Counted from the first letter of the stretch, positions 6,773 through 28,216 are shown. The stretch is 33,784 bases of DNA from Alphaproteobacteria bacterium (GCA_013288575.1 JABDBO010000003.1:1-33784), one strand, 5' to 3'. Notes: generated from the letters alone by a model not told the origin. Program-made: numbers and translations.

Positions 6773-6810
6773 TAAATAATATTGGCCGGATAAAGTTAAT
6801 AATTAGTTAC
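6773..6810 (-). promoter_or_regulatory. Putative CtrA-dependent leaderless promoter of paralog A
   Basis: Minus strand: GTAA-N7-TTAA (6810-6796), 11 nt, CAATAT (6784-6779), 6 nt, ATG. Confidence 0.6.
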
Positions 6811-6834
6811 TTTATTAATTAACTATTTAAATGA

Positions 6835-7539
6835 CTAGGCCAACCCTTTCTCCGCTAATTTTTCCTGGCAATATGCATTGAATCTTTCCATACTTTCTGG
6901 GTCTTTCCGATCTAGTTTACCACCCCAATTAGTGCCTATAGTAAGCAATTGCCCAAGTTTTAAAGAGCCCGGTTCAGAGATAAAACTTTCTAAATCTGCA
7001 ATCACCCAGGCAATTTTTGGATCAGAAGATTGCAAAATCCCCAGCACAATTTCCCTATCCCACGGGCTTACTAAATTAGCATCCATATTCACTATTACAC
7101 GTTCTTTGAATGATTCAATATCACCTGGCACAAAACCTAATTTTAGCCACGCATAACTGCCAACTTCACATGCACCTACTGTAACCGTATCAATATCAAG
7201 CGCCTCATAAATTTCATTCATATTAGCCAAAAGTTGCGTGGCCGAGCCTGTGGTCTTCTTAAAATAAACTGCAGTATCAGAAAAATAACTATTACCATTC
7301 GTAAAATTAAATACAAAATATGATTAGTGAGCTCCATTGCAATAAAAATTCATTTTTATTTTGAATGAATCATCAGAAACAGAAAATGTTACTTCTTCTT
7401 TTTTATCATACGGCGGCATTCCCCTTTTCAATATCTGATAAATTTCTTGCGGCTCGTGATTTGGAAAAGTCTTTTGCCAAAACTCCTGAGCTTCTTTCCC
7501 CAGATTACCATTAGGACCAAGATTAAATTCTAATTCCAT
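6835..7539 (-). pseudogene. Paralog B of the 239-aa protein, interrupted by one in-frame TAA at 7326-7324
   Basis: ORFs 7324..7539 and 6835..7230 are in the same frame and the intervening codons are open (SYFVFNFTNGNSYFSDTAVYFKKTTGSATQL). Shares PQEIYQILKRGMPP, GSYAWLK.GFVP, DPKIAW.IAD and GQLL.I.TNW.G with paralog A. Confidence 0.85.
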
Positions 7540-7577
7540 TATAAAATTCTAGAACTTAACTATTAAGATTGGCTTAA
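7540..7577 (-). promoter_or_regulatory. Putative CtrA-dependent leaderless promoter of paralog B, box embedded in the cysQ stop region
   Basis: Perfect TTAA-N7-TTAA at 7563-7577, 11 nt, TAGAAT (7551-7546), 6 nt, ATG at 7539. Confidence 0.7.
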
Positions 7578-8309
7578 ACCACGCGCCACAAACGCCCCGT
7601 TTTCAAAAATCTGGTTCTTCCCATAAGTAAACGGCGCACCTTCCGGCGTTACAACGCTACCACCAGCACTTTGCAAAATTGCCTGGCCTGCCGCCGTGTC
7701 CCATTCCATCGTCCGGCCAAAACGCGGGTAAATATCGGCCGCACCTTCCGCAATTAAACAAAACTTCAGCGAACTTGCCGCAGCCACTAATTTCAAATCT
7801 TTAAATTTTGATTTCTGGCTTTCAATATAATGTTTCGTCTCATCATCCATATGGTTGCGGCTGCCCACAATCACCACTCCATCATCCGGCATATGACGGC
7901 AGCGAATTTCCTTCCCATTCTTAAATGCCTTTTTGCCGTCGCCCCAATATTCATCACCACTCACCGGAACATAAATCACCCCGGCCATCGCTTTAAAATC
8001 CTTAACCAAGCCAATATTTACCGTAAACTCACCACTCCCACGAATAAACCCCTTCGTCCCATCCAGCGGATCAACCAAAAAGAAGGTGCCGGAAGTCTGG
8101 CGGTCTTTCGCCCCTTCCTCCGAAACTATTGGAATATCAGGGAAATGCGCTTTGAGCTCCGCCACAATATAGTCATTCGCCGCCATATCCGCCAATGTTA
8201 CGGGTGAATCATCAGCTTTTACAGTGGCCCCAAATTCGCCCTTGTAATAGCCCATAATTATCTTTCCCGCTTGCTTTGCAATATGTGTTAATCTATTAAT
8301 GTCAGCCAA
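7563..8309 (-). CDS. cysQ: 3'(2'),5'-bisphosphate nucleotidase CysQ
   Basis: KADDSPVTLAD, SEE, FLVDPLDGTK.F, SSLKFCLIAEG.AD.YPR, TMEWDTAAG motifs. AAGGAG RBS before a TTG start. Confidence 0.95.
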   Translation of the reverse strand: MADINRLTHIAKQAGKIIMGYYKGEFGATVKADDSPVTLADMAANDYIVAELKAHFPDIPIVSEEGAKDRQTSGTFFLVDPLDGTKGFIRGSGEFTVNIGLVKDFKAMAGVIYVPVSGDEYWGDGKKAFKNGKEIRCRHMPDDGVVIVGSRNHMDDETKHYIESQKSKFKDLKLVAAASSLKFCLIAEGAADIYPRFGRTMEWDTAAGQAILQSAGGSVVTPEGAPFTYGKNQIFENGAFVARGLSQS

Positions 8310-8336
8310 AATAACTCCTTGAAAATTCCATACGCT

Positions 8337-11300
8337 ATGACCAAAAACTCAGCTCAAAACACGCATATGAACAAGACTACCACAAAAACCTCTACGACCA
8401 ATAAGAAATCTCAAGGAAAAAACATTTCGCCGTTGGAACAATTCACCCAGAATTTTTATTCTTATGCTTTTGAAGATGAGTTGAAATACCAATCCCGCGA
8501 TGAACTTCTCGCTAAAACTGAAAATGCTTTCAAATTTTTTGAAAAGCGCAAACCTCATGAACCGAAAATTGAAATTGATCCGCCACAAGGCAAAGATCTA
8601 AAACCGCGCACAATTTTAAAAGTCTTGAACGACGATAAAACTTTTTTGGTTGATTCTGTCATCGCCGAAGTCAGCCGTCTTGGTTACAAAATTTATGAAA
8701 TTTACCACCCGGTTCTAAAAGTAAACCGCGATAAAAGCGGCAAATTTACCGAGTTTGATTCTAAACACGGCAAGGCTGAATCTCTCATCTATTTAAAAAT
8801 CAGCTATATCGAACACCAAGTCGCTATTGATTCACTCAAGAAAAACCTCGAAGCCGTTCTCCGCGCACTTTACTTGGCCGTTGACGACTGGCGCTCGATG
8901 CTGGTCAAAGTTGATGAAACCGTCAAATCAATGCATCTTGCCCAAAGCAGCTTCCCTAATGATGAAGTTGATGAAACTACTGATTTCCTAAAATGGCTGG
9001 CTGATGATCACTTCACATTCTTAGGCTACAGCGAATATGAAATTTCGCCAAAAAGCAAAAAGCTAAAACTTATAGAAGATTCTAACCTCGGCGTTTCTCG
9101 CCCTGAAGCTGCGCAACTCACAGATATTTCACCGGAAGAACAGGCAAAACTTTCTGCCGATGGCGACCTATTGCAGATTACAAAATCCGATAATAAAGCA
9201 ATCGTTCATCGCAGCGTTTACATGGACCACATCGCCGTCAAAAAATTTGATGGTAATGGCAAAATCATCGGCGAGCGCCGTTTCTTGGGCCTTTTTGCCA
9301 GCAGCGCTTACTATCAGATGACGAATACAATCCCAATCATCCGCCGCAAAGTAAAATACGTCCAAGGCAAATCCGGTTTCGCCCGCGGTGGCCACTCAGC
9401 CAAAATCGTCCAGTTTATTTTAGACTCATATCCACGCGACGAAATTTTCCAAAGCAATGCCGACCAACTCCTCAAAAATATCCTCTCCATTCTCGAATTA
9501 ATGGAGCGCCCGCGCGTCGGCCTCTACATGCGCAATGACCGTTTTGACCGTTTCATTTCCTGCTTAATTTATGTTCCGAAAGAGAAATTCGATACGAATT
9601 TGCGCTTCCGCATCCAGCGCATTTTAGAAAAATCACTCGAGGGCAAAGTCACCGAATATTATACACAAATTTCTGATTCACCGCTCTCACGCCTGCATCT
9701 TATCATCAAGCCAAACAGCAAAATTGGCAAATATGATGTTGAAGAACTCCGCACCAAAATCGCCGAAGTTTCCAATTTATGGTCAGACGAACTTTTGGCA
9801 ACTCTCGCCGAAAAATTTGGTGACCGCAAAGGCGAACAGCTTTTCACCAAATATGAAAATGCTTTCCCGAAAGATTACACCGCAATTTACAGCTCAAAAC
9901 ACGCCATCAGTGATATCAACAAAATCGAAGAATCGCTAAACGCGCATCGCCTCGAAGTTGAATTCTACCAATCAAAAGAAGATGGCGAAGTTGATAGCTA
10001 CCACCTAAAAACCTTCAACCCGGGTGACGCAATCGCACTTTCTGACGTGCTCCCAATTCTCGAAAACTTTGGCCTGCGCGTAATTTCTGAAAAACCATTC
10101 TTCGTTGAACCGGCCGGTGGCGAAGTCGGCGTCGGTATTTCAGATTTCGAAGTTGAGCCGATGAACAAACAGCCGATTAATCTCGAAGAAATAAAAGAAC
10201 TGCTCGAAACTGCCTTCAAAAAAGTTATCTTAGTTGAGGCCGAAAATGACCAGCTCAACAAGCTCGTGATTTTTGCTAACCTTCCTTGGCGCGATATCGT
10301 GCTGCTCCGCGCTTACACTCGTTATCTCCGCCAGGCAGGTCTTGCCCTCGGCATCAACTTCTTCATGGATGCGCTTGTCAACCAAGCCAAACTCTCAAGC
10401 CGGTTGGTTGATTTGTTCCACTCTTATTTTGATCCGAAAACCAAATTAAAAGCTGAAGATATTATTGCTGAAATCAATGAAGATTTAGCCAATGTTTCTA
10501 ACCTAAACGAAGACCGCGCCATCCGCCGCTTGAGTGAAACTATTGAAGCCACGCTTCGCACCAATTTCTTCCAAACTACTGATGTTGGTAGCAACAAATC
10601 ATACGTTTCCTTCAAATTTGATTCGCGCAAAGTGCCAGACTTGCCATTGCCGCGCCCACTCTATGAAGTTTTCGTCTACGCTCCATTCGTCGAAGGCATT
10701 CACTTACGCGGCGGCATGGTTGCCCGCGGTGGCCTCCGCTGGTCAGACCGGTCTGAAGATTTCCGCACCGAAATTTTGGGCCTCATGAAAGCGCAAATGG
10801 TCAAAAATTCCGTTATCGTGCCAGTCGGTTCCAAAGGCGGCTTCATCGTAAAAGGCCATGTGCCGGATGACCGTGACGCCAAATTGAAACAAGGCATCGA
10901 ATGCTACAAAACTTTCTTGCGCGGTGTGCTTGATGTTACTGATAACATCGTCAAAGGCAAAATCGCCCCACCGCAAAATGTCACTCGCCGTGACGGGGAT
11001 GATCCATACCTCGTAGTTGCCGCCGATAAAGGCACCGCAACATTCTCAGACATCGCCAACAGCGTTTCTGAAGAATACGGCTTCTGGCTCGGCGACGCAT
11101 TCGCATCAGGCGGAAGCGCCGGTTACGACCACAAAAAAATGGGCATCACCGCCAAAGGCGCATGGATTTCCGTCCAACGCCACTTCCGCGAAATCGGCGT
11201 TGATGTGCAATCACAAGATTTCACCTGCGTCGGCGTGGGTGATATGTCCGGCGACGTTTTCGGCAATGGCATGCTGCTTTCCGAACACATCAAATTAGTT

Positions 11301-13121: not shown

Positions 13122-13124
13122 TAC

Positions 13125-13195
13125 GTCGTCCTGCGGCTCGACCGCAGGATCTGGTTTCACAATCAGGAGATCCTATGGTCAAGCCATAGGATGAC
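13125..13195. repeat. 71-bp REP doublet, left copy (type A)
   Basis: GTCGTCCTGCGGCTCGACCGCAGGATC..GATCCTATGGTCAAGCCATAGGATGAC. 69/71 identical to the reverse complement of 13846-13916. Confidence 0.9.
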
Positions 13196-13221
13196 GTTTA
13201 TAATAAAATTTAAAGAACAGA

Positions 13222-13291
13222 GAGCCGTCAGCCCGACGCATCCGTCGGCGTTACCAAACGCGAGCATGCGCAATGCTCGTTTGGTAACAAT
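13222..13291 (+). repeat. Structured repeat type B, copy 1
   Basis: GAGCCGTCAGCC, short hairpin CGACG-CATC-CGTCG, long hairpin GTTACCAAAC..GTTTGGTAAC. Confidence 0.85.
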
Positions 13292-13308
13292 AAAAATACC
13301 CACCTAAT

Positions 13309-13338
13309 TTGACTATTAGCTTCCCCCATGCCTAGAAT
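13309..13338 (+). promoter_or_regulatory. Sigma70-type promoter for the RelB/DinJ-like gene
   Basis: TTGACT-18 nt-TAGAAT. Confidence 0.55.
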
Positions 13339-13342
13339 TTTC

Positions 13343-13411
13343 ATGTAGAGCCAATTTCTGCCTTTCTAACGTTCTCTAGCGTCTTGAAAATGACGGGAAG
13401 TGGCTCTGCAT
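13343..13411 (+). promoter_or_regulatory. Putative structured 5' leader RNA
   Basis: ATGTAGAGCCAATTTC can pair with GAAGTGGCTCTGCAT (with G-U pairs), starting at the predicted transcription start. Confidence 0.45.
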
Positions 13412-13453
13412 GGCCATCAAAAATTCAACGAAATCAAACAAAAACAATAGCTT

Positions 13454-13833: not shown

Positions 13834-13845
13834 CCTAGTCTTGAC

Positions 13846-13916: not shown

Positions 13917-13949
13917 GAATTCTGAGAACACAGGAAATATTTTCCCCTG

Positions 13950-13987
13950 CTAACGAAATCTTAATACTTGCCCCCCATGATGGTAAT
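13950..13987 (+). promoter_or_regulatory. Putative CtrA-dependent leaderless promoter of the MinD/FlhG gene
   Basis: CTAA-N7-TTAA (13950-13964), 11 nt, CATGAT (13976-13981), 6 nt, ATG. Confidence 0.6.
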
Positions 13988-14737
13988 ATGAAAAGCAAAG
14001 ACAATATATTAGCAATAGCCTCCGGCAAAGGCGGCGTCGGCAAAACCTGGGTTTCCACAACGATTTCGCATATTTTCGCCAATTCTGGCCGCAAGGCATT
14101 ATTATTTGATGGTGATATTGGCCTGGCCAATGTCGATGTCCAACTCGGCCTTTCACCGGCAGTTGATTTAAGCGATGTTTTCACCGGCAAAGCTACTTTG
14201 GCCCAAGCCGTAACCCATTATGATGAAGGCAATTTTGATATCATCGCCGGTCGTTCGGGCAGCGGGTCACTTGCCAATTTATCGGTCGATAAAATCAATT
14301 CACTTAGCCGGGAACTTGATGCGCTCGCCAAAACTTATGATCTCGTGCTGCTTGATCTCGGCGCGGGTATTGAACAACAAGTGCAAGCCATGGCCCAACT
14401 TGCCAGCCGCTGTTTAATTGTCATTACCGATGAGCCGACTTCGCTTACCGATGCTTATGCATTTATCAAAATTCTCCGCATGCAAAATCAAGATGCGGAT
14501 ATCCAAATTATTGTAAACATGGCTGAAAATCAGCGCGAAGGTTTAAAAACTTTTGGCGCCATTAAAAATGCTTGCGAGAGCTTTTTGAAATTTTCACCGC
14601 GCCTGGCGGGAATTGTTCGCCGTGATCCGAAAGTTAAGGAAGCTATACGTTCGCAAACGCCAATTCTCCTTAAAAACTCCAAATCGATGGCCGCCGCCGA
14701 TATCGCCGCATTGGCCGTAAAGCTAATGGCTCGATAG
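13988..14737 (+). CDS. MinD/ParA-family ATPase, FlhG/FleN/MotR-like flagellar regulator
   Basis: IASGKGGVGKT deviant Walker A, FDGDIGLANVD, LDLGAGI, EPTSLTDAYAFIK. Flagellar neighbourhood. Confidence 0.88.
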   Translation: MKSKDNILAIASGKGGVGKTWVSTTISHIFANSGRKALLFDGDIGLANVDVQLGLSPAVDLSDVFTGKATLAQAVTHYDEGNFDIIAGRSGSGSLANLSVDKINSLSRELDALAKTYDLVLLDLGAGIEQQVQAMAQLASRCLIVITDEPTSLTDAYAFIKILRMQNQDADIQIIVNMAENQREGLKTFGAIKNACESFLKFSPRLAGIVRRDPKVKEAIRSQTPILLKNSKSMAAADIAALAVKLMAR

Positions 14738-14905: not shown

Positions 14906-14944
14906 TTCATAAAATCTTAAGACTTTATGAATAAAATCAAATAC
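14906..14944 (+). promoter_or_regulatory. Putative CtrA-dependent leaderless promoter of the FliK-like gene
   Basis: TTCA-N7-TTAA (14906-14920), 11 nt, TAAAAT (14932-14937), 7 nt, ATG at 14945. Confidence 0.6.
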
Positions 14945-16747
14945 ATGGACGTGCCTATTATACCGCCAGTCACTATCCCGCCGCCGCAACCTGCCCCGCA
15001 AGCTGCGCTTAATCAAGGTACGCAGAATAATGCGCCACAAGTTCAGCAGCAACAAACTCAAGCCATCAACCAAATTCCTTTGGGGATCACGGTCGGCCAA
15101 GTGGCCGGTAATGACAAAAACGGTAACTTAATCGTGCGCCTTGCTGGCAGTGATCTGGTTCTCTCAAGCCCAATTGCTTTAGCAAAAGATGCGCTGGTGA
15201 CTTTGAAAATTGATAATATCAGCAGCAATTTGGCCGTGCAGCTTTTAAGCGTTGATGGCAAAACTCCAGCTTCGCAGCCGCAAGCTTTATCAAACCAGTT
15301 GCAACAAAATCCACCAAAAGACCAAAACCAGAATTCGCAAAACCAATTCCAGCAAAATCAGAACGGCAGCGTACCGCTGAAACTTGTTTCGATATTAAAT
15401 TCCAACAGCAGCACAAAACCTGCCGAACCACCTGCTCCTCAGCCAAACCAGGCGCAACCCGCGCAGGTTTATAAAACTGATACGGTAACTCTCACCTCGC
15501 CGCAAACCACTGCCGTTAAGGGAATTATCATCACTCTAGCGCCCGAAGCTGTTCAAAATCTAAAAGCGAATCTGCCATTTGATGAAGGTGATTCAGCCAA
15601 ACTTGCCGATTCTATACCTGAAGAAATCAAACCCGGCACGCAAGTAAATGCAAAAATCACCAGCATTGCCCAACCGCCGCAAAATCCAAATCAGCAGGTG
15701 CAAACTGAAAATAAAACCCTTGCCAAGCAAGATTGGATGCAGCCAGAACAACAAGCCCTAAAAGAATCTGCTGATGAGCCAAATGCTCCCCAGGTAAAAT
15801 TGCAAGAACAGGCCGATAATTTCACCCCCACCCTGCGCCCATTATCCAATGGCAATATCCAGATGAATGCGCGGGTGCTTGATGCCAAACCAAATGGCGA
15901 AATGCTGGTCGAAACTAAAATCGGCAAAATTCTAATTAGCAGCAATCCGCAAATTTCTACCGCCGTCAAAGGCGCGATATTAAAACTTGAACTAACAAAT
16001 TTCAGTCCGCCGGAAAAGGCTGATATTGAATTGCCAAGTGGTGATCAACTACCGCCGGCCCAACAGCTCGGCCATGATTGGCCGGCTCTCAAAACTTTAG
16101 CTGAGCGCGCTGACGAACTCGGCATGCCGCAACTTACCAATCAGCTCGCAGGGATTGATTCAGCTTTCGCTGGCCGTTTAGCAGGTTTTATCAATGCTAT
16201 GAAAACCGGCGATCTTAAAGCCTGGCTTGGTGAAAATGCTTATGACCTGCTTGATGATGGTGATTCTGGCAGCAATCTTTTGGCCAAGCTTAGAGGCGAT
16301 ATAAATAACATCCGCGATATTTTCAACCAGCGTGATAATGGCTGGCAAACTATGCTATTCCCTGTTTATGACGGGAACAGTTTATATCAGGCGCGCATGC
16401 ATGTGAAATATCTGCCTGATGAAGAAACCGGCCAGCCGGATAAAGCCAGCGGCACGCGTTTCATTGTTGAAGTTGATACTAGCCATTTCGGTGAAATTCA
16501 GCTTGATGGTTTAGTGCGCGGCAATATGACAGCCAAACATTTTGATTTAATGGTGCGCACACATAAGAATTTAGAGCTTAATATCCAGGATGATATTCGC
16601 AATATTTTCAGTTCAGCTGGTGAAATTACCGGCTTCCATGGTGATATTGAATTTTCAACCATGAAGGAATTCCCGGTAAATTTGTTTGATAAAATGGTCA
16701 ATAGCTCGCTCGCCAAAAAAATCGACCATAAAGGAATCGAGGCTTAA
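14945..16747 (+). CDS. Pro/Gln-rich protein with a FliK-like (hook-length control) C-terminal domain
   Basis: Long low-complexity P/Q/N tracts, then WQTMLFP..RFIVEVDTSHFGEIQLDGLV..FDLMVRT. Next to MinD/FlhG, fliJ and fliI. ORF track start is 14927; promoter geometry favours 14945. Confidence 0.62.
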   Translation: MDVPIIPPVTIPPPQPAPQAALNQGTQNNAPQVQQQQTQAINQIPLGITVGQVAGNDKNGNLIVRLAGSDLVLSSPIALAKDALVTLKIDNISSNLAVQLLSVDGKTPASQPQALSNQLQQNPPKDQNQNSQNQFQQNQNGSVPLKLVSILNSNSSTKPAEPPAPQPNQAQPAQVYKTDTVTLTSPQTTAVKGIIITLAPEAVQNLKANLPFDEGDSAKLADSIPEEIKPGTQVNAKITSIAQPPQNPNQQVQTENKTLAKQDWMQPEQQALKESADEPNAPQVKLQEQADNFTPTLRPLSNGNIQMNARVLDAKPNGEMLVETKIGKILISSNPQISTAVKGAILKLELTNFSPPEKADIELPSGDQLPPAQQLGHDWPALKTLAERADELGMPQLTNQLAGIDSAFAGRLAGFINAMKTGDLKAWLGENAYDLLDDGDSGSNLLAKLRGDINNIRDIFNQRDNGWQTMLFPVYDGNSLYQARMHVKYLPDEETGQPDKASGTRFIVEVDTSHFGEIQLDGLVRGNMTAKHFDLMVRTHKNLELNIQDDIRNIFSSAGEITGFHGDIEFSTMKEFPVNLFDKMVNSSLAKKIDHKGIEA

Positions 16748-16756: not shown

Positions 16757-17470
16757 CTACTGCAGCGCCATCATATAATAAAATTGCCCATATACCGAGC
16801 GCGAATCAGTGCAAGGGTAAACCGCCAAATCACCATCGCTGCAATAACCAACCTGGCCGGCAGAATTTGCCAAACCTATTGAACTTCCAACAAACGGCAC
16901 AGAACCAAGCTTGGCCTCAAGCGCTAGTTCGGTGATTGGCATTACCTCAACCATCAGCGAAAAATTCCACGTTCCGCCCACATAATAAGAATCTATTCCC
17001 GGTTTAGAGCCCAAAACTGCAGTAGCTGGGCCTTCTATTTCAGTATAAGGTTCAACAACGCCGGGAATATCTGCAATATTATCAGAATGCGGGCCACCGC
17101 AGGCAGTTGCCGGCGAATACGGAACATAATTACCCGTAATCATGCCAGCTTCCACAAGATGCGCAAATACCTGCTGGTTTTCGGAATTGCTAAGTAAGCC
17201 GTTACACTGCGAACTACTTCCTCCCCCGCCAAGATCTAACTGTTCATCATTATTGCCAGGAGGGATGAAGTTGGAACTATCACCGGGATATTTTTTATAA
17301 TTCAGCCTAAAGTTATTTATCGCAACTTCATATTGCTGCAAATTTCTTATTATTTGCTGGGTCTTGGCTGTGCTTATCATACTTTGCGCAACTAATATGC
17401 CGCCGATAAGCAAGCCAATAATAACCAGCACAATAGAAAGTTCCACTAATGTGAAACCTTTACTGCGCAT
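16757..17470 (-). CDS. Type IV pilin / T2SS pseudopilin-like protein
   Basis: Canonical class III signal MRSKG|FTLVELSIVLVIIGLLIGGIL with Glu5. YPGD motif and paired Cys. Confidence 0.9.
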   Translation of the reverse strand: MRSKGFTLVELSIVLVIIGLLIGGILVAQSMISTAKTQQIIRNLQQYEVAINNFRLNYKKYPGDSSNFIPPGNNDEQLDLGGGGSSSQCNGLLSNSENQQVFAHLVEAGMITGNYVPYSPATACGGPHSDNIADIPGVVEPYTEIEGPATAVLGSKPGIDSYYVGGTWNFSLMVEVMPITELALEAKLGSVPFVGSSIGLANSAGQVGYCSDGDLAVYPCTDSRSVYGQFYYMMALQ

Positions 17471-17879
17471 CTTTCCTCACGAAACCGCGAAGCGCTACCT
17501 CATTCATCATTATGGTTTCGCGTCTTTGCGTTTCGCCACGTTCGGCCGCTAGGCGCTGATCGAGCGCAATTTCAAATTTTTTGAGTTCGCTAAATGCATC
17601 AAGCAATTCATCGCGTTTTTTATCAATTGCAACTTGCAACATTTCAATATTTTTAAGCAATGCCCGTTGCCGCTCAATTGTCTTTTTCGCAAATGCCGCA
17701 AACGCACTAGCACATTCCGGAAAGTTGGTTGCCGCAGTTGCTTCTAGTTCCAACTGCACGCCAAGTTCATGGTGTTCATCTTTTAAAATCCGCTGGCGCT
17801 CTTCTATTTGCGTCAGCTCTTTCTTGAGCTTATCGGCCTCATCTTTTTTCAGGCGAATCAATGTGCGCAATGTTTTCAT
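17460..17879 (-). CDS. fliJ: Flagellar export protein FliJ
   Basis: 139-aa coiled coil directly after fliI. MKTLRTLIRL..AFSELKKFEI..MNEVAL matches the alphaproteobacterial FliJ pattern. Confidence 0.85.
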   Translation of the reverse strand: MKTLRTLIRLKKDEADKLKKELTQIEERQRILKDEHHELGVQLELEATAATNFPECASAFAAFAKKTIERQRALLKNIEMLQVAIDKKRDELLDAFSELKKFEIALDQRLAAERGETQRRETIMMNEVALRGFVRKDAQ

Positions 17880-19205
17880 CTACGCCTCCGCCGGTTGCTC
17901 AGCTAAAATTTCCCCTAACCTCTTATATCCTTCCACCAATGTCGTATGATCGCGTGGAGTTTGCGATAAAAATTCTTCGATTTTCGGGTTCAACCGAATC
18001 GCCTCATCAACCGCCGGATCACTGCCTTTGCGATATGCGCCTAAACGAATCATCTCCGCCATATCATCATAAGTGGATAAAATATTCCGTGCTTTATTTA
18101 CAATCTTGTTTTCTTCATCAGTATTACATTGCGGCATCATCCGTGAAACGGATTTCAAAACATTCACCGCCGGATATCTTCCGCGCTCGGCGATTTTTCT
18201 TTCCAACACAATATGCCCATCTAAAATACCGCGCACCGCATCGGCTACCGGTTCATCATGGTCACCGCCATCAACCAAAACCGAAAATAGTCCGGTAATC
18301 GAACCTTCACCAACTCCCGGCCCGGCCCGTTCTAGCAACCTTGGCAGCTCAGCAAAAACAGTTGGCGTATAACCTTTTGATGTCGGCGGCTCACCGGCTG
18401 ATAAACCAATCTCACGCTGCGCCATCGCAAAACGCGTGACTGAATCCATCATGCACAAAACTTTTTTCTCACGGTCACGGAAATATTCGGCTACTGCCAT
18501 CGTCACAAACGCCGCATATTTACGCATCAGTGCGCTTTCATCAGAAGTTGCCACAATAACCACCGAGCGTTTCAAACCTTCTTCACCCAAATATTCCTCA
18601 ATAAATTCCTGCACCTCACGGCCACGTTCACCGATCAAACCGATCACGTTGATATCCGCCGAAGAGTAACGCGCAATCATCGACATGGTCATAGATTTAC
18701 CCACACCCGATCCGGCGAAAATACCAATACGCTGGCCGCTGCACAAAGTTGTAAATGTGTTTAAAACCCTAACGCCTAAATCAATTTTCCCGCCCACTCT
18801 TTTGCGCTTATTAGCCGGTGGCGGCGAAGCTTTTAGCGGGTAGCTATCCAACCCCAAAGGTAATGGCCCCTTATCATCAATCGGCTCGCCAAAAGCATTT
18901 ACTACCCGGCCCAGCCACTCATCACATGGGTGAATTGCGCTTTCCGCATCAGCCAGTTCCACTTTTGAACCAACACCCACACCTTCTACCGGGGTAAACG
19001 GCATCATTAAGGCTTTTTCTTCTTCAAATCCAACAACTTCGCAGGTAATCGGCTTGCCGACACGCGGATAAACCTTGCAGCGGCTGCCAATGCTCATGAA
19101 TTTCTCCAAACCGACGCACTCAACCAGTAGCCCGGAAATCTTACTAACCTTGCCGTAATACTGCACCGAATCTAGGCGATTGATTTCCCTAACTAAATGA
19201 TCCAT
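17880..19205 (-). CDS. fliI: Flagellar export ATPase FliI
   Basis: GQRIGIFAGSGVGKS, GLIGERGREV, MDSVTRFAMAQREIGL..GEPP, VRGILDGHIVL, GRYPAVNVLKSVSR. Confidence 0.96.
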   Translation of the reverse strand: MDHLVREINRLDSVQYYGKVSKISGLLVECVGLEKFMSIGSRCKVYPRVGKPITCEVVGFEEEKALMMPFTPVEGVGVGSKVELADAESAIHPCDEWLGRVVNAFGEPIDDKGPLPLGLDSYPLKASPPPANKRKRVGGKIDLGVRVLNTFTTLCSGQRIGIFAGSGVGKSMTMSMIARYSSADINVIGLIGERGREVQEFIEEYLGEEGLKRSVVIVATSDESALMRKYAAFVTMAVAEYFRDREKKVLCMMDSVTRFAMAQREIGLSAGEPPTSKGYTPTVFAELPRLLERAGPGVGEGSITGLFSVLVDGGDHDEPVADAVRGILDGHIVLERKIAERGRYPAVNVLKSVSRMMPQCNTDEENKIVNKARNILSTYDDMAEMIRLGAYRKGSDPAVDEAIRLNPKIEEFLSQTPRDHTTLVEGYKRLGEILAEQPAEA

Positions 19206-19324: not shown

Positions 19325-19356
19325 ATCTTGGCTATAAAAGTTTAATATAAAGTAAA
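19325..19356 (-). promoter_or_regulatory. Putative CtrA-dependent promoter of fliI-fliJ-pilin
   Basis: Minus strand TTTA-N7-TTAA (19356-19342), 11 nt, CAAGAT (19330-19325). Confidence 0.5.
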
Positions 19357-19435
19357 GATTGTTATTGAATTCCAACAAAATATAAGTTAACTTAATAATT
19401 AAGAAATATTGCAGTTTCATTAAAGGAGAAGAGCA

Positions 19436-20155
19436 ATGCGTGTATTACTAGTAGAAGATGATGCATCAACCGCCCGTTCGATAGAATTGGCCTTAGCTTC
19501 TGAAGGTATCGTTTGCGATACTGCTGACCTCGGCGAAGAAGGGCTAGAGATCGGAAAAATATACGATTATGACATCATCATCCTTGATTTAATGCTCCCT
19601 GACCTTGACGGTTACGAAGTTCTCCGCCGCCTCCGCGCTGCAAAAATTAAAACTCCAATTTTAATCCTTTCCGGCCTCTCTGCTCCTGACCAAAAAATTA
19701 AAGGTCTTGGCTTTGGCGCTGATGATTATCTCACTAAACCTTTCAACAAAGGCGAGCTCATTGCCCGTATCCAGGCAATTGTACGCCGCAGCAAAGGCCA
19801 CTCAGAATCAATCATCCGCACTGGCAAACTCTCTGTTAACCTCGACACTCGCAGCGTTGAAATTGAATCTAAACCAGTTCACCTGACTTCTAAAGAATAT
19901 GGCATCTTGGAACTTCTTTCTTTACGCAAAGGCTCAACCCTTACTAAAGAAATGTTCTTAAACCACCTTTACGGCGGCATTGATGAACCAGAACTCAAAA
20001 TCATCGACGTATTCGTCTGCAAACTCCGCAAAAAACTGGCTGATGAAGCTGGTGGCGAAAACTACATCGAAACCGTTTGGGGCCGTGGCTATGTGTTGAA
20101 AGACCCAGCTCGCGCCGGTGCTGATGCTAGCGCAGAAGAACTCGCAAACGCGTAG
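19436..20155 (+). CDS. ctrA: Cell-cycle response regulator CtrA
   Basis: [82 protein letters not shown]. Confidence 0.97.
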
Positions 20156-20211: not shown

Positions 20212-20221
20212 AAAGGTTTAT

Positions 20222-20800: not shown

Positions 20801-21418
20801 ATGCAACCAACTTCCCAATACGCCACATTTTTCCAGCGCCTGCTCGCCCATATTATTGATACAGTACTGGTCGGCACGCCGGTGATTGCCCTTGTATTTT
20901 ATATATTAGTGCCGATGTTTCTTAATTTCCCCGTCATTCAGGCCGCAAAAGATAAGGAAGTTGAACTTGCCATCGAGCTTTATACCAGCCAGGTTTATAT
21001 CGCACTGCTAAGTGCGATATGCATGGCTTTCGTCTTAACAATTTTTGCCATTTCCAAATGGCAGGCTACTCCGGGAAAACGTATAATCGGCATTTATATT
21101 TCAATGCGAAATGGCGCAAAACCGCAATTTCGCGCGGCTTTCGGCCGGTTTATTTCACTGCCGCTTTTTTTACTTTTACTGCAATTTTTTGAACGCCGCG
21201 AAACTTATCAAAAGCTAAGCGACTTAAAAACTCCTGGCCGTGCAATTACTAATATAGAGCAATTGGAACAATATCTTAACGGCCCGGTTACTGCGCTTAC
21301 CACGCTTATTATATTAGTGGTAATTTCGTTCTGGTATTTGAAAATTGTTTTCTCAAGCGAACATACGGCAGTGCATGACACACTTTTTGAAACCCGGGTG
21401 CTCCAGGGCAAGAAATAA
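20801..21418 (+). CDS. RDD family membrane protein
   Basis: YATFFQRLLAHIID, QATPGKRIIGI, HDTLFETRV. Confidence 0.9.
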   Translation: MQPTSQYATFFQRLLAHIIDTVLVGTPVIALVFYILVPMFLNFPVIQAAKDKEVELAIELYTSQVYIALLSAICMAFVLTIFAISKWQATPGKRIIGIYISMRNGAKPQFRAAFGRFISLPLFLLLLQFFERRETYQKLSDLKTPGRAITNIEQLEQYLNGPVTALTTLIILVVISFWYLKIVFSSEHTAVHDTLFETRVLQGKK

Positions 21419-21466
21419 CTGATAATCTGATGGAAAATTCCTGCGCTCATCTATATAATCCGCCCC

Positions 21467-22648: not shown

Positions 22649-22812
22649 TTTCCTATTAGCAATATACTATATATGCGAACCAGCCGGAAAATTCCCACTA
22701 GATGTTGCATAATTGCACTCTATTTCGAATTCTAAATAAATCTCACTAAAAAGGTTTGAAGTTACCTCTGACCTCTTGCAAAAGAGAGGCGAAATTTAGT
22801 TTAATTGGAAAC

Positions 22813-24303
22813 ATGTTCAACGAGGGTGGAAACCGCATATGCTCGCCTGAGCTGCTAGCGCAAATAGCAGAGGTAATTGACTCGGCGGTAGTAATTACAA
22901 AATTTGGCAGCCTCGGCCAGTTTGACCATCGCATAATCTACGCAAACCCGGCATTTACAAAACTTACCGGCTATAAAAATAACGAAATTATCGGCCGCTC
23001 ACCCGATGTTTTATGCGACCCACGCACTTCTGGTGACAAGATCATCGAGTTCTACACGCGCTGCGCACATGGCGGAAAATTCGCGGTAGAAATTGACAGC
23101 TTCAAAAAACTCGGCAGCGAAATTAAACTCCGCATGGAAGTGACACCGGTCATTGATGAAACTCAAGGCGTTAATTATTACATCCTATTTTTGAAAGATT
23201 TAGCACAAGCGGAAATTCGCGCTGCTATGCCGGAAAGCTTTGGCAGCCGCCCAACTTACGCTTACCAGCCACGTGAAGAACAAGAGCCGGCCCCTGCACT
23301 AAAACCGCAATATCATTTTGAAGTTCCGCCAGTAGCGGCAGTTAAACCAGCGGCAAAAGTTGAGGAAGAAGTTTTCCAATTCCAAACTCAATATCATCCA
23401 GAACCGCAAACTCAGCCACAATCACAGCCGGTTCAACAAGCAGTTCCGCCGAAAAAATTTGATGAACGTTATTGGCTTTCGCCTAACAATGATTTAACTC
23501 CTCATAGCACTCATAGCGCCGCAGAAGATGATGCTTTGCCAAAAGTTCCAGCTGAAATTTCTACTGATGAAAGCATTGCAGAATATTGCAAAACCCAGTT
23601 CTTAGCCAATATGAGCCATGATCTGCGTACGCCATTAAACGCAATTATCGGCTTTTCGGAAGTTATCAAAGACCAACTCTTCGGCCCGATTGATAACTCG
23701 CGTTATGTTTCATATGCCAATGATATTTTTAAAAGCGGACAAGAACTTTTCGCCACTATCAGCGAAATTATGGAGCTCTCTGAAATCGCGCCAGATGAAG
23801 ATTTAAGCGAAAACGAACGCATGAATATTTGCGATGTTATTGAATCAGTCATCGATGTCCTTTCGCCAAAAGCTTTTGAAGCTGATGTGAAAATTATCAA
23901 ATCGCTAAACGTTCACGAGCTGCGCTTAAAAGGCGATCGCCGCAAAATCAAACAAGCAGTAGCCGGCGTTATCAACAACGCGATCAAATATTCAGATAAA
24001 GCCAGCAAGATTGAAATTAGCGCTAATTTAAATGAAAAAGGTGACTTGAAACTCGTCGTTTATGCACGCTCTGCCAATATTATGCCAGCTCGCGGCGGCA
24101 ACGGTTTAATGGGCACCATCACAAAAAAAGCCGAAAGCGAATATCCGGAAATTTCGCTCGCCAAACGCTTTATCGAAGCACATGAAGGCAAATTCGCCAT
24201 TTTTAACTCAGCCATTTCCGGCACTGAAATTGCCATCACATTGCCAGCCACGCGGCTCTCGATGGAACAGGAAAAGAAAACCCTACTCAAAGTTATAAGC
24301 TAG
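22813..24303 (+). CDS. PAS-domain histidine kinase of the PleC/DivJ (PdhS) type with a degenerate ATP-binding domain
   Basis: PAS (IIYANPAFTKLTGY..EIIGRSP), P/Q linker, H-box FLANMSHDLRTPLNAIIGFSE, N-box NNAIKYS. G1 and G2 boxes not recognisable. ATG 22813 preferred over TTG 22756. Confidence 0.85.
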   Translation: MFNEGGNRICSPELLAQIAEVIDSAVVITKFGSLGQFDHRIIYANPAFTKLTGYKNNEIIGRSPDVLCDPRTSGDKIIEFYTRCAHGGKFAVEIDSFKKLGSEIKLRMEVTPVIDETQGVNYYILFLKDLAQAEIRAAMPESFGSRPTYAYQPREEQEPAPALKPQYHFEVPPVAAVKPAAKVEEEVFQFQTQYHPEPQTQPQSQPVQQAVPPKKFDERYWLSPNNDLTPHSTHSAAEDDALPKVPAEISTDESIAEYCKTQFLANMSHDLRTPLNAIIGFSEVIKDQLFGPIDNSRYVSYANDIFKSGQELFATISEIMELSEIAPDEDLSENERMNICDVIESVIDVLSPKAFEADVKIIKSLNVHELRLKGDRRKIKQAVAGVINNAIKYSDKASKIEISANLNEKGDLKLVVYARSANIMPARGGNGLMGTITKKAESEYPEISLAKRFIEAHEGKFAIFNSAISGTEIAITLPATRLSMEQEKKTLLKVIS

Positions 24304-24422
24304 TACCATTATTTATTATGAACATGCGCGAGGCAGAAGCCGAGCCCAGCCATGAGCTAGCGAAGCTATATTCCATCTAAAGCGGCAGGAGCCGCGAAGG
24401 GGAAAATTAATAAATTGATGCT

Positions 24423-24459
24423 AAAAATGCTGGCATTTTTACAAATAAATTTGTATAAT
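24423..24459 (+). promoter_or_regulatory. Promoter with two adjacent palindromic operators upstream of the MarR-like gene
   Basis: AAAAATGC-TG-GCATTTTT (24423-24440), TACAAAT-AA-ATTTGTA (24440-24455), TATAAT at 24454-24459, ATG 6 nt later. Confidence 0.55.
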
Positions 24460-24465
24460 ATTCAT

Positions 24466-24852
24466 ATGAAACACAAATTTACTCCGCAGCAGCATCGCGA
24501 ATATATTATCCTTTCACGCAAAACCGGGATGGATTGGCTGGAAGTTTTTTCCGGCAATACTGATTTTTATTCCACCTATTTCTGGGAGCTCTTAACCGAA
24601 ATGTGGTTCCATGATAAACCGGTGATGGTCTCTGACGCATTGCGTTATATGAAATCAATCAAAAGCCCATTCACTGCGCGCAAATATTTGCAAAAAGCCA
24701 TTGATGGCAAATTGGTAGTTGAGCGCAAAAACCCGAGTGATGAGCGTTCGATATTGGTTGAGCTACCGCCAGAAATGCGCAAGAAACTCGATGCATTTTT
24801 TGATAAGTCGATCGAGAAACTGCTGGATTCTGCCGAGAATTTGAAAAAGTGA
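24466..24852 (+). CDS. MarR-like winged-helix DNA-binding protein
   Basis: TARKYLQKAIDGKLVVERKNPSDERSILVEL wing motif (DxR). Confidence 0.75.
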   Translation: MKHKFTPQQHREYIILSRKTGMDWLEVFSGNTDFYSTYFWELLTEMWFHDKPVMVSDALRYMKSIKSPFTARKYLQKAIDGKLVVERKNPSDERSILVELPPEMRKKLDAFFDKSIEKLLDSAENLKK

Positions 24853-24862
24853 AAGTTAGAAG

Positions 24863-25270
24863 TTATTCTCTTTCAAAGCTTTTAACTTCAATAGCTCTCT
24901 TTGCCGTAATATTACTAGCCCAGCCATCAGATTCCATAATAAGACTCTCTTGTGGTGACATTGGAGCTTTTTCAACTTCCTGATTCGCTTCTTGTTGCGC
25001 GGTTAAAACAGTTAAACCGCCGATAGCTATAGCTGGTAAAGGTGACTTACGAAAAAATTCTTTTACTGAAAAGCTTGCATTTCTTATCGCGCCGCTTGGC
25101 AATTCCCAGCATAGATATATTGCAACACGAATTGGCCAAATTGGCCTTGCATTCCAACGCTGTGACGCCACATAATCATCGCTGTCCCTTTCTTCAGCAT
25201 AACCATCATTGGGAAATCTTTTGACTGATTCCAATAACGCGGATAGCAACTCTTCAATGCTTTCTCTCAT
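24863..25270 (-). CDS. Hypothetical protein with one hydrophobic segment
   Basis: 135-aa ORF filling the gap between the MarR-like gene and acpS, with its own near-consensus promoter. Confidence 0.55.
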   Translation of the reverse strand: MRESIEELLSALLESVKRFPNDGYAEERDSDDYVASQRWNARPIWPIRVAIYLCWELPSGAIRNASFSVKEFFRKSPLPAIAIGGLTVLTAQQEANQEVEKAPMSPQESLIMESDGWASNITAKRAIEVKSFERE

Positions 25271-25276
25271 AAAATG

Positions 25277-25305
25277 AATATATACAAGCTATTAGCTATT
25301 GTCAA
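25277..25305 (-). promoter_or_regulatory. Sigma70 leaderless promoter
   Basis: Minus strand TTGACA-17 nt-TATATT-6 nt-ATG(25270). Confidence 0.65.
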
Positions 25306-25321
25306 TTTTCGTTAGCAATTA

Positions 25322-25666
25322 CTATTCTTCTACTATAGCAAACGCCACTGCATAGTGGAAATCATCACTCAATGTCAGGTGAATTTTAGCAGTTACGCCT
25401 TTGACAATCGCATAAGGCTGGCCGCTGGGATGGTTTAAGATTTTGATATCTTTAAAACCAGTCTGCCCAATTCCCGTGCCAAGCGCTTTTGAAATTGCTT
25501 CCTTGGCAGCGAATCGTTTGGCGTAATGCGCCATTTTGATCTCGCCGGTTTTATCGGTACGCTCTTCGTCGTTGAAAATGCGATTCAGAAATTTCTCACC
25601 AAATTCATCAATCATTCCGGCAATGCGGTTGATGTCGACTATATCTGTGCCAATTCCGATTATCAT
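25322..25666 (-). CDS. acpS: Holo-[acyl-carrier-protein] synthase
   Basis: MIIGIGTDIV, AKRFAAKEAISKALGTG, LTLSDD..YAVAF. Follows pdxJ. Confidence 0.95.
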   Translation of the reverse strand: MIIGIGTDIVDINRIAGMIDEFGEKFLNRIFNDEERTDKTGEIKMAHYAKRFAAKEAISKALGTGIGQTGFKDIKILNHPSGQPYAIVKGVTAKIHLTLSDDFHYAVAFAIVEE

Positions 25667-25667
25667 A

Positions 25668-26402
25668 TCATGCCCCGAATTTGCGCGCCTTATCCATTAA
25701 AACCCGCATTTCGATTATTGCCATATCAAGCCCGGCGAATACGGCTTCACCGATCAAAAAATGCCCAATATTGAGTTCGCGGATAATTGGAATGGCGGCA
25801 ATTTTACTTACATTTCCGTAATTTAGCCCATGTCCGGCATGGCATTCCAGGTTCAATTCTTCAGCCTGGGTTGAAGAACACAGGATTTTTTCATATTCAC
25901 CCTTCTCGCCATGCGCATAAGCGCCGGTATGAAATTCAATTACCGGGGCTTTAAGTTCAGCCGCAGCTTCCACCTGTTTGGCATCGGCATTAATGAATAG
26001 CGAAACGCGGATTCCTGCGGCCGATAATTCCTCAACATAGCGCTTTAATTCATCTTTAAGCCGTGACACATCCAAGCCACCTTCAGTTGTCACTTCCTCC
26101 CTTCTTTCGGGAACCAGGCAAACCGCATGAGGCTTTGTTTTTAAAGCAATTTTTAGCATTTCAGGGGTAGCTGCCATTTCCAGATTAAGTGGCAGATTTA
26201 CCTCCATTTTGAGCTCTTCTATATCCCGGTCTTTTATATGCCTTCTATCTTCGCGCAAATGGGCGGTAATTCCGTCCGCACCGGCATCGGAAGCAAGCTG
26301 GGCAGCACGTAGCGGCGAAGGATGCACCCCGCCGCGGGCGTTACGAATTGTTGCAACATGGTCAATATTTACGCCAAGCCTCAGTTTTTGAACGATTGTC
26401 AA
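25668..26402 (-). CDS. pdxJ: Pyridoxine 5'-phosphate synthase
   Basis: [60 protein letters not shown]. Confidence 0.97.
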
Positions 26403-26464
26403 GCACTTCTCCTTAGAAAAACCTAGATATTTAAATTTTTTTCATTATGGTAACTTCCGCGCAA

Positions 26465-26998
26465 ATGAAAAGACTAAAAAAACTAATTGCCATAATATTT
26501 TTATCCGGTCTGACTGCCTGTGGCACCAGCATGCACGCCTCGCGTGACCCAAACCCAGAAGTTTATACGGATGCGGATGACTTTTATGATAGCGTCATCA
26601 CTGAAATAAATTACACGCCTGATCAGCAAAAGCTCATAAACTATAGCCGCGGCCTGCTTGGCACTGATTATAGCTATGGTAGCGAAAACCCGACTGATGG
26701 GTTTGATTGCAGCGGTTTCACTCAATATGTTTATGCCAAGTCATTGAATTTTAAGCTTCCTCGCACTGCACGTGAGATGGCGCAAACCGGTGAGCCGGTA
26801 AACATAGCTGACCTAAAAGCGGGAGACCTAGTATTTTTTAATTTATTAGGCTTCAAATATTCACATGTTGGTATATATATTGGTAACGGCCGGTTCTTCC
26901 ATGCCAGCACGAATCAGAAAGCAATTGTAATAGGGAATTTGAAAAATGAGTATTTTGCAAAAAGATATAACGGCGCTAGACGAGTCTTATCAAGCTAG
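26465..26998 (+). CDS. NlpC/P60 (C40) peptidoglycan endopeptidase lipoprotein
   Basis: Lipobox LTA|C, GFDCSGF, LPRTA, GDLVFF, HVGIYIG..FFHAS. Start at 26447 or 26465. Confidence 0.92.
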   Translation: MKRLKKLIAIIFLSGLTACGTSMHASRDPNPEVYTDADDFYDSVITEINYTPDQQKLINYSRGLLGTDYSYGSENPTDGFDCSGFTQYVYAKSLNFKLPRTAREMAQTGEPVNIADLKAGDLVFFNLLGFKYSHVGIYIGNGRFFHASTNQKAIVIGNLKNEYFAKRYNGARRVLSS

Positions 26999-28139
26999 TG
27001 AGCCAGTTGCCAAAAAGGGCAATATTAAATTTTCAATTGATCGCGCCAATATTTTGCGCGCGCTTTCGCATATTCAATCAGTTGTTGAAAAACGCACAAC
27101 CATTCCTGTGCTGTCAAATGTGAAGCTGGAAATTGAAAGTGATAAGCTGCGCTTAACCGCAACTGATATGGAAATTTCCATCACTGAAACTATTCCGGTT
27201 AAATCATCCGGCAATGGCGCAACAACGCTCTCTGCGCAGATTTTATATGATATCATCCGCAAACTTCCGGAAGGTTCGGAAGTTGAATTCTCAAGCGGCA
27301 AAAATGACCAGGTGGAAGTTAAAGCGGGCCGTTCTAAATTTAAACTTCTTTCACTTCCGGCTGAAACTTTCCCGGCACTAGAGCAAAATGATTTGCCGCA
27401 TAAATTTACATTGCCGGCCAAAGAAATGCGCTCGCTGATTGATAAAGTCCGCTTTGCGATTTCGAATGAGGAAACCCGTTATTATTTGAACGGAATTTAT
27501 TTGCACACCGGCGAAGAAAATGGCTCAGCAGTTTTGCGCACAGCTTCAACTGATGGCCACCGTTTGGCGCGGGTATCAATTAACCAACCAGCGGGCGCGG
27601 CAGAAATTCCGGGTGTTATTATTCCGAAGAAAACGGTTGGCGAATTGCGCAAACTTTTGGCTGAATATCAAAATGAAGTTGAAGTTTCGCTTTCTGAAAC
27701 CAAAATTATTTTCAGCTTCGGCGATGTGATTGTTTCTTCAAAATTGATCGACGGCAAATTCCCTGATTATGACCGCGTTATTCCGAAAGGTAATGACAAA
27801 ATCTTGGAGGTGAATTCAAAAGAATTCGCTGAAGCGGTTGACCGCGTTTCGACAATTTCAATGGAAAAAGCGCGCGCGATTAAACTCTCAATCAAAACTG
27901 GCCTAATCGGCATTTCGACTGATTCACCAGATGGCAGTAATGCCAACGAGGAATTGGAAGCAAGTTACAGCGCCGATGCGATCGAAACTGGTTACAACTT
28001 CCGGTATATACTTGATATGATGGGGCAAATTGAGGGCGAAACGACACAATTCATGCTTGCTGACGCTTCAAGCCCAGCATTAGTGAGAGATCCTAGTGAC
28101 GTTTCAGTACTTTATGTCATTATGCCAATGAGAATCTGA
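26946..28139 (+). CDS. dnaN: DNA polymerase III beta sliding clamp
   Basis: VVEKRTTIPVLSNV, ATDMEI, EETRYYLNGI, STDGHRLA, KLIDGKFPDYDRVIP, VIMPMRI. True start is uncertain. Confidence 0.97.
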   Translation: MSILQKDITALDESYQASEPVAKKGNIKFSIDRANILRALSHIQSVVEKRTTIPVLSNVKLEIESDKLRLTATDMEISITETIPVKSSGNGATTLSAQILYDIIRKLPEGSEVEFSSGKNDQVEVKAGRSKFKLLSLPAETFPALEQNDLPHKFTLPAKEMRSLIDKVRFAISNEETRYYLNGIYLHTGEENGSAVLRTASTDGHRLARVSINQPAGAAEIPGVIIPKKTVGELRKLLAEYQNEVEVSLSETKIIFSFGDVIVSSKLIDGKFPDYDRVIPKGNDKILEVNSKEFAEAVDRVSTISMEKARAIKLSIKTGLIGISTDSPDGSNANEELEASYSADAIETGYNFRYILDMMGQIEGETTQFMLADASSPALVRDPSDVSVLYVIMPMRI

Positions 28140-28179
28140 CCTTAGAATTTGGTGTTAATATAAGGCGTTAATTCAAAAA

Positions 28180-28216
28180 TTAACCCGTTCTTAAGGCATA
28201 AATTATAGAATGGGTA
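28180..28216 (+). promoter_or_regulatory. Putative CtrA-dependent leaderless promoter of giant pilin-like gene 1
   Basis: Perfect TTAA-CCCGTTC-TTAA (28180-28194), 11 nt, TAGAAT (28206-28211), 5 nt, ATG. Extra TTAA half-sites at 28155 and 28168. Confidence 0.7.

Follow-up and report, generated by a model that had tools for sequence, protein, structure and literature searches.

A recurrent box, spacer and hexamer layout suggests a CtrA-type, mostly leaderless promoter class at flagellar, pilin-like and accessory genes of an alphaproteobacterial genome

The DNA considered here is a stretch of 33,784 nucleotides (nt) from an alphaproteobacterial assembly (GCA_013288575.1, JABDBO010000003.1:1-33784), and the whole of it is called the window. 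It carries ctrA, fliI and fliJ, a MinD-like gene adjoining flagellar genes, two paralogous genes named A and B, and two genes for giant pilin-like proteins. Upstream of six genes the same layout is found, consisting of a box of the form TTAA-N7-TTAA, a spacer of 11 nt and a -10-like hexamer. An earlier note on this DNA had described these six sites as one repeated promoter geometry of the response regulator CtrA, and its reading of the letters holds. All six boxes were read and confirmed where it had placed them, two being perfect and four having one mismatch; spacer and hexamer are present at 6/6 sites; and in 5/6 an ATG follows 5-7 nt past the hexamer, too close to accommodate a Shine-Dalgarno sequence. 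From the start of the box it is 26 nt to the hexamer and, in these five sites, 37-39 nt to the ATG. The window makes up 3% of the assembly (G000; 1,048,552 bases in 93 contigs, 58% complete). It was compared for synteny with G001, a genome of the same genus (CtrA 96% identical), and with G004, a genome of the same family.

Two sites lie on the plus strand near the flagellar genes. Site 3 (box CTAA-N7-TTAA at 13950..13964, hexamer CATGAT at 13976..13981) ends 6 nt before the ATG at 13988 of a MinD/ParA-family ATPase gene (13988..14737, plus strand; Pfam CbiA, AAA_31, ParA). The product matches the NCBIfam MinD models below their cut-offs, and its relatives among named genomes are 48-57% identical (Tistlia, Dongia and various metagenome genomes). 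Site 4 (box TTCA-N7-TTAA at 14906..14920, hexamer TAAAAT at 14932..14937) is followed after 7 nt by the ATG at 14945 of a gene for a 600-aa protein (14945..16747, plus strand), which is syntenic in G001 and G004. An alternative in-frame ATG at 14927 lies inside the site; it is not kept in the relatives, whereas the start ATGGA(C/T) at 14945 is conserved in both, and 14945 is therefore preferred. The 600-aa protein has no family match, so that the label "FliK-like" attached to it earlier found no support in family searches.

Site 5 (minus strand; box TTTA-N7-TTAA at 19342..19356, hexamer CAAGAT at 19325..19330) is the weakest of the six. It lies in the intergenic stretch from which fliI and ctrA diverge, and box, 11-nt spacer and hexamer are all there, but the hexamer is poor, lies 119 nt before the fliI ATG at 19205, and the site is conserved in the same-genus genome only. 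The gene fliI (17880..19205; Pfam ATP-synt_ab, T3SS_ATPase_C) encodes the flagellar export ATPase and is followed by fliJ (17460..17879; Pfam FliJ, with a TIGR02473 match below cut-off) and directly by a prepilin-type gene (16757..17470; Pfam N_methyl), all on the minus strand. The prepilin-type gene seems to have been added to the fliI-fliJ unit, since only about 350 nt separate its neighbours in G001, and at least nine other N-terminal look-alikes of it are present in the assembly.

The perfect boxes belong to sites 2 and 6. Site 6 (plus strand; box TTAACCCGTTCTTAA at 28180..28194, hexamer TAGAAT at 28206..28211) ends 5 nt before the ATG at 28217 of giant pilin-like protein 1. Site 2 (minus strand; box TTAAGCCAATCTTAA at 7563..7577, hexamer TAGAAT at 7546..7551) ends 6 nt before the ATG at 7539 of gene B, and site 1 (minus strand; box GTAA-N7-TTAA, with one mismatch, at 6796..6810, hexamer CAATAT at 6779..6784) ends 6 nt before the ATG at 6772 of gene A. 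The box of site 2 overlaps the last codons of an inositol-monophosphatase-family gene and spans an insertion junction. The claim made for gene B thus stands for the layout, which has its perfect box, but not for a working gene behind it, as the frame is broken and the box straddles the junction.

The response regulator expected to bind these boxes is encoded in the window itself, which favours the attribution to CtrA made in the earlier note. The gene ctrA (19436..20155, plus strand) is divergent to fliI-fliJ, and its product scores 418.7 bits on NF045991, above the equivalog cut-off of 350, the next family being PmrA with 183.5 bits. Its Pfam domains are Response_reg (residues 3-113) and Trans_reg_C (146-221). 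The N7 layout was looked for upstream of ctrA itself and none was found. What the window, G001 and G004 share at this place is a conserved cluster TTAA-N1-TTAA-N3-TTAA (19387..19402, plus strand), 34-49 nt ahead of the start codon; its spacing is irregular, and it may have a part in autoregulation. A PAS histidine kinase gene (22756-24303, plus strand) is the third gene after ctrA. The catalytic part of its product most resembles the DivJ and PdhS models, with scores far under their cut-offs, and the kinase may belong to the CtrA pathway.

The box by itself is not enriched in the window. With one mismatch allowed there are 30 boxes in 33.8 kb, three of them perfect, which is close to a rough estimate from base composition. 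The signal resides in the spacing. When boxes with a half-site gap of 7 were combined with the hexamer nAnnAT across the assembly, 86 were found at spacer 11 versus 45-70 at other spacers from 3 to 21, and for perfect boxes the figures were 12 versus 1-6. The peak at spacer 11 is absent genome-wide when the half-sites are set 5, 6, 8 or 9 nt apart as controls. In a count of composite sites that have an ATG 5-7 nt after the hexamer opening at least 60 codons, 19 of 122 qualify at spacer 11, versus 0, 0, 2, 1, 1, 4, 1, 1, 1 and 1 at spacers 6-10 and 12-16. Five of these 19 leaderless composite sites of the assembly, site 1 among them, are in the window. The distance from box to ATG is a weaker test; for the 7-nt gap it gives 15 sites at offset 38, nine at 39 and eight at 40. 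The shared geometry is a real, non-random class, as had been proposed, because the excess is seen with spacer 11 and gap 7 only and the layout recurs across the order.

This recurrence was measured with the pattern TTAA-N7-TTAA-N{7,15}-TANNNT-N6-ATG in 31 genomes of the order (this genome and 30 relatives), with the reversed pattern as control. There are 136 matches, of which 79 have spacer 11 and 20 spacer 12, the remaining seven spacers having 3-9 each; the reversed control gives 24 in all. At least one spacer-11 match is present in 21/30 relatives. Among the 74 spacer-11 matches in relatives, the ATG opens at least 30 codons in 51 and at least 100 codons in 49. When 149 genomes of the class but outside this order were searched for the exact pattern with spacer 11, there were 23 matches in 17 genomes, and eight with the reversed control. 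The layout is thus much commoner per genome in this order than in other orders, a difference to which base composition surely contributes.

The 74 sites of the relatives also reveal finer features. A C follows the 3' TTAA in 40 of them, and T-rich stretches lie behind both half-sites, with a period of 11 bp. Such repeated half-sites would suit a tandem dimer of a response regulator. A G at -14 (32 sites) and a T at -15 (30 sites) hint at an extended -10 element.

Individual sites of the window are kept at aligned places. At site 3, the stretch ACG(A/G)AATCTTAA is kept in G001 and G004 within an otherwise unalignable spacer; the box cTAACGaAATCTTAA is preserved, and 11 nt later the hexamer reads CATGAT in the window and G001 and CACAAT in G004. 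At site 4, the box is perfect in G001 and reads ATAA-N7-TTAA in G004, and the hexamers TAAAAT (window), TAAACT (G001) and TAAAAT (G004) are each followed by 7 nt and the gene start. The box before fliI is kept in G001, where the hexamer is GAGAAT; in G004 the fliI spacer has a nearby one-mismatch box without an nAnnAT hexamer 11 nt after it.

Absence of a Shine-Dalgarno sequence at five sites had been presented as part of the CtrA geometry, and the observation itself is sound. As a hallmark of CtrA it does not hold, because predicted leaderless starts are a general habit of this genome. TAnnnT stands exactly 6 nt before the first ATG in 104 of 1265 long open reading frames (ORFs), versus 22-53 at other distances. 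In 111 such leaderless candidates, the positions 17 bp upstream of the hexamer read T (59), T (71) and G (45), an ordinary -35 element, and a box at the exact position is perfect in two and has one mismatch in five. Since most of these starts have a TTG-type -35 upstream, the lack of a Shine-Dalgarno sequence belongs to the organism in general and is no sign of CtrA control. What the CtrA-type box defines is a subclass of these promoters, in which it takes the place of the -35 element. Two further candidates, both box-less, are seen in the window, an RDD-family gene at 20801 (plus strand) and an ORF ending at 25270 (minus strand).

Genes elsewhere in the assembly that carry the layout include flagellar genes of class II type, in line with the proposed link to the flagellar regulon. 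The gene fliF and a flgB-like gene have the box, 11 nt and a hexamer (CTAAAT and TAAGAT, respectively), and their ATGs are 62-67 nt away from where the box begins. A 163-aa gene without family match, in the leaderless form, diverges from fliF across a spacer of about 175 nt (G000:C9:4738-4846), and each of the two has its own CtrA-type box. Further genes behind the motif encode a TadE-like protein, MlaA, EamA, PfkB, a class-III aminotransferase, a DUF2336 protein (SpbR family match below cut-off), an Aas-like fusion of an acyltransferase with an AMP-binding enzyme, and several small proteins without family. A GspF/PilC-type platform protein is also preceded by a box; its hexamer TATTAA falls outside the filter, and it is hence not among the 19. 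Among 51 proteins scanned from the relatives are class-III aminotransferases (5), T2SS/T4P ATPases (4), prepilin-type proteins (4), DUF2336 proteins (2), acyltransferases (2) and TPS exoproteins (2), with ten families represented once each. Among early flagellar and pilus genes, the layout stands before those for FliF, the flgB-like, MinD-like and 600-aa proteins, pilin-like proteins, the GspF/PilC-type protein, the TadE-like protein and T2SSE.

The 15-mer TTAAGCCAATCTTAA of site 2 recurs before a gene for a 711-aa acyltransferase-hydrolase, with spacer 12 (G000:C12:9929-9970, minus strand). A mobile element shared by the two copies was considered; by a rough estimate, a chance identity among about 54 perfect boxes is not especially improbable (of the order of 0.1), and the idea was set aside.

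In the flagellar hierarchy of Caulobacter, CtrA serves class II genes and sigma-54 serves classes III and IV. Four genes of the rod, hook and flagellin families in G000 are preceded by TGGCAC-N5-TTGC, a sigma-54-like element seen by eye, and a fifth (C5:~18640) has a one-base variant with ATGC for TTGC; the elements lie on contigs C12 (~700), C5 (~18640 and ~19440), C15 (~3250) and C72 (~1980). The RpoN motif is quoted as GGCNC-N4-CTTGC (PMC4287350, in excerpt). With CtrA-type boxes at fliF and the flgB-like gene and sigma-54-like elements at rod, hook and flagellin genes, the arrangement resembles that of Caulobacter and suggests a similar two-step flagellar hierarchy. FHIPEP (FlhA) was not found in the 58%-complete assembly, which is not evidence that it is absent.

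Genes A and B lie on a segment (5860-7584) that looks like an insertion, because G001 and G004 lack it in their syntenic regions and because about 117 nt from the 3' end of the inositol-monophosphatase-family gene are directly duplicated on its two sides (5741-5859 and 7570-7695). Protein A has 239 aa (6053..6772, minus strand). Gene B (6835..7539, minus strand) is a 235-codon frame paralogous to A, with 45% identity by tblastn and 46% in a second comparison; it contains a single in-frame TAA (7326-7324, minus strand) in an otherwise open frame, and is either a recent pseudogene or affected by a sequencing error.

The description of both products as GNAT-like is favoured, for protein A, by weak fold matches and by remote homology, although neither protein matches a GNAT family model. 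A Pfam scan of A and B at E <= 0.01 gave no family, and a word-indexed protein search with A returned only A itself. In an exhaustive HMMER search, the C-terminal ~135 residues of A, the GNAT-related part also found in polyvalent proteins, had 349 relatives among cluster representatives, often at the C-terminal end of long proteins. Five of 14 scanned relatives match GNAT models, and in four (P0002, P0005, P0010, P0017) the match overlaps the stretch aligned with A; others carry Mu F, portal, ADP-ribosyltransferase or LPD23 domains. The predicted model of A (pLDDT 78.1) retrieves GNATs at the top of a Foldseek search, the best E being 5.4e-3 and none reaching 1e-3. In a VIA search nearly all of the top 50 are GNATs, with a best Z of 8.2 (root-mean-square deviation 6.4, 141 aligned residues), Z values near 8 being common background. 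The pyrophosphate-binding motif for acetyl-CoA is Q/R-x-x-G-x-G/A. At its place, relatives in L057 and L058 read HGAGTARQ and GHGMARQ, and protein A reads QQKASATQ. On the model and these remote matches, "GNAT-like" appears a reasonable term for protein A.

The two giant proteins, protein 1 of 867 aa (28217..30820, plus strand) and its paralogue protein 2 (30888..33602), share only their N-terminal ~150-180 residues with a family present in 24/31 genomes. These residues are homologous to prepilin-type proteins of relatives, and the homologues in four relatives match N_methyl, which makes the giant proteins pilin-related. The name "giant pilin" finds no support beyond this relationship, as neither matches N_methyl or another pilin family and both lack the Glu5 of the prepilin motif G-F-x-x-x-E, the sequence reading GFALII. 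Pilin-like homologues at other loci in G001, G022 and G004 have a perfect box, 11 nt and TAnnnT, and in G001 and G022 the gene-opening ATG follows 6 nt after the hexamer. No box was seen before protein 2 in 30800-30900, and its gene may be co-transcribed with that of protein 1.

The position of the box can be compared with CtrA sites of Caulobacter, for which the sources are cited from excerpts. In the ctrA P2 promoter the 5' nucleotide of the full motif lies at -39 and the site is activating, and half-sites over the -10 repress (PMC4287350); most CtrA-activated promoters have one site at -35 (PMC11264516). Counted from the -10 hexamer, the box here is predicted to span -38 to -24, and it would start at -37 to -39 only if transcription begins at the ATG. 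The claim that the box covers the -35 region would thus agree with the activating position in Caulobacter (-39 in ctrA P2; -35) (PMC4287350, PMC11264516), and by this agreement the mechanism would be the known one. The full-motif promoters of Caulobacter (ctrA P2, fliQ, fliL, pilA site 1 and hemE Ps) are also similar in having TTAA-N7-TTAA with few mismatches and in preceding flagellar class II-type and pilin genes, and the predicted place of the box over the -35 region, with the 5' nucleotide at about -38/-39, would be a further likeness (PMC4287350, PMC11264516).

Unlike the Caulobacter set, the promoters described here have an AT-rich TAnnnT -10 and would mostly be leaderless, with a rigid box-to-ATG distance of 38 nt, and they also precede genes for giant pilin-like proteins, the GNAT-related cassette, TPS exoproteins and metabolic genes. 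The -10 of Caulobacter is of a GC-rich type. A precedent for the leaderless form is CCNA_01391 of Caulobacter, with a CtrA motif TTAT-N7-TCAA at -32 of a leaderless primary start (PMC4287350). It is the single case reported in the excerpted source, whereas the present genome, at 58% completeness, has 19 and the 30 relatives have 74 with a perfect box. Rickettsiales (Ehrlichia, Wolbachia) are likewise small-genome alphaproteobacteria that keep CtrA and TTAA-N7-TTAA, according to excerpts of PMC9791040, PMC1914354 and PMC4426382. A literature search on CtrA and "leaderless" found no description of such a promoter class, which may still be published. New here are the lineage, the rigidity of the leaderless form, how often it occurs and the set of genes that carry it.

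The most probable explanation, with a probability of roughly 0.78, is that the six sites belong to one CtrA-type promoter class that would be activated by CtrA through the -35 region. The recognition element would be TTAA-N7-TTAA, usually followed by C, lying across the -35 region and 11 bp upstream of the -10. Phosphorylated CtrA, the product of 19436-20155, would bind it as a dimer and recruit the housekeeping RNA polymerase, substituting for the absent -35 hexamer as at the class II flagellar, pilA and ctrA P2 promoters of Caulobacter. At five sites transcription is predicted to start at or beside the A of the ATG, since the -10 ends 5-7 nt before it, and the mRNA would be leaderless. The class would join three sets of genes. 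These would be flagellar genes (the MinD-like gene, the 600-aa protein, fliF and the flgB-like gene with leaders, and perhaps fliI), pilus or secretion genes (giant pilin-like proteins, GspF/PilC-type and TadE-like) and accessory genes (the GNAT-related protein A, SpbR/DUF2336-like proteins and acyltransferases). Expression of the GNAT-like proteins and the giant pilin in the motile stage, as put forward in the earlier note, is purely conjectural. A search for sequencing runs gave one DNA data set, which may come from the source sample, and no RNA data set.

Several observations weigh against this explanation. The organism is uncultured and its assembly incomplete, and outside the genus the conservation of the fliI site is doubtful. 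The hexamers CATGAT and CAAGAT match the -10 poorly. The box-to-ATG test is modest, because individual offsets in the controls also rise to 11 and 10 with gap 6 and to 12 with gap 8. In relatives, 23 of the 74 ATGs open a frame of under 30 codons, which means that some matches are not leaderless gene starts. Metabolic genes and genes with no function assigned are numerous downstream of the motif, with 22 of the 51 proteins of relatives lacking a family and an aminotransferase occurring in five relatives. The class-III aminotransferase box, TTAATTGACC(A/G)TTAA, is kept in four genomes of the family (G000:C24:8129-8169, minus strand; G001:C1:267333; G003:C3:20129; G004:C20:25969) and contains a good TTGACC -35 element, so that an activator may be unnecessary there. 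Further OmpR-family regulators in the genome, with 32-41% identity to CtrA, could also be binders.

The last point leads to the alternative that survives best, in which the element is real and is read by another OmpR-family regulator or by an alternative sigma factor with a TTAA-rich -35. Many of the downstream genes are indeed not classical CtrA targets. This alternative is nevertheless unlikely, because TTAA-N7-TTAA(C) at -35 is the full CtrA motif documented in the excerpts of PMC4287350 and PMC11264516, the CtrA of this genome is above the equivalog cut-off, and the genes behind the element include typical targets of CtrA, namely fliF, flgB-like, pilin-like and T2SS/T4P genes. A sigma factor would be ill-suited to two repeated half-sites.

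Alternatively, CtrA could repress or modulate constitutive leaderless sigma-70 promoters by occluding the -35 region. Box-less leaderless promoters of the form TAnnnT-6-ATG are common in this genome, some boxes enclose a good -35 element (TTAATTGACCATTAA), the extended -10 hinted at by G at -14 (32/74) and T at -15 (30/74) could work without a -35, and fliQ and fliL of Caulobacter are both activated and repressed by CtrA (PMC11264516, in excerpt). Most boxes, however, replace a TTG-type -35 and do not contain it, and repressing sites in Caulobacter lie over the -10, whereas those starting near -39 or -35 activate (excerpts of PMC4287350), which makes this reading quite improbable. That the boxes are chance occurrences in AT-rich intergenic DNA, six of them picked for lying near hexamers, would fit their composition-level number and the noisy box-to-ATG histogram, but is treated as refuted by the excess confined to spacer 11 and gap 7, by the share of spacer 11 in the order-wide matches (79/136) and by the sites kept at aligned places.

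An extension of the CtrA-activated class is conceivable, though on balance doubtful. The rigid unit, which measures about 41 bp from the CtrA box through the 11-bp spacer, the extended -10 and a further 6 bp to the ATG, might act as a portable promoter-plus-start-codon cassette that wires newly acquired or fast-evolving surface and effector genes to CtrA; CtrA would replace the -35 contact, and translation would do without a leader. If so, its use in this order would greatly exceed that in other Alphaproteobacteria, with 74 perfect copies in 30 genomes versus 23 in 149 genomes of other orders. Examples would be the giant pilin-like proteins, TPS exoproteins and the GNAT-related domain of phage and conjugative polyvalent proteins, and the box of gene B, assembled across an insertion junction, would be such wiring caught happening.

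The mechanism proposed for the CtrA-type class is a textbook one, and the value of the finding is in annotation and comparison, not in concept. For an uncultured lineage of soil alphaproteobacteria with small genomes it offers a prediction of the individual sites of a CtrA regulon, and it suggests that the Caulobacter-style flagellar order, with CtrA followed by a sigma-54-like step, also operates there. With the fixed box-to-start distance of 38 nt, related metagenome genomes could be searched simply and specifically for CtrA targets, and the sites would form a natural set of activator-dependent leaderless promoters. For the organism itself, the giant pilin-like proteins, the GNAT-related cassette and the SpbR/DUF2336-like proteins would be placed in a testable programme of motility and surface functions.

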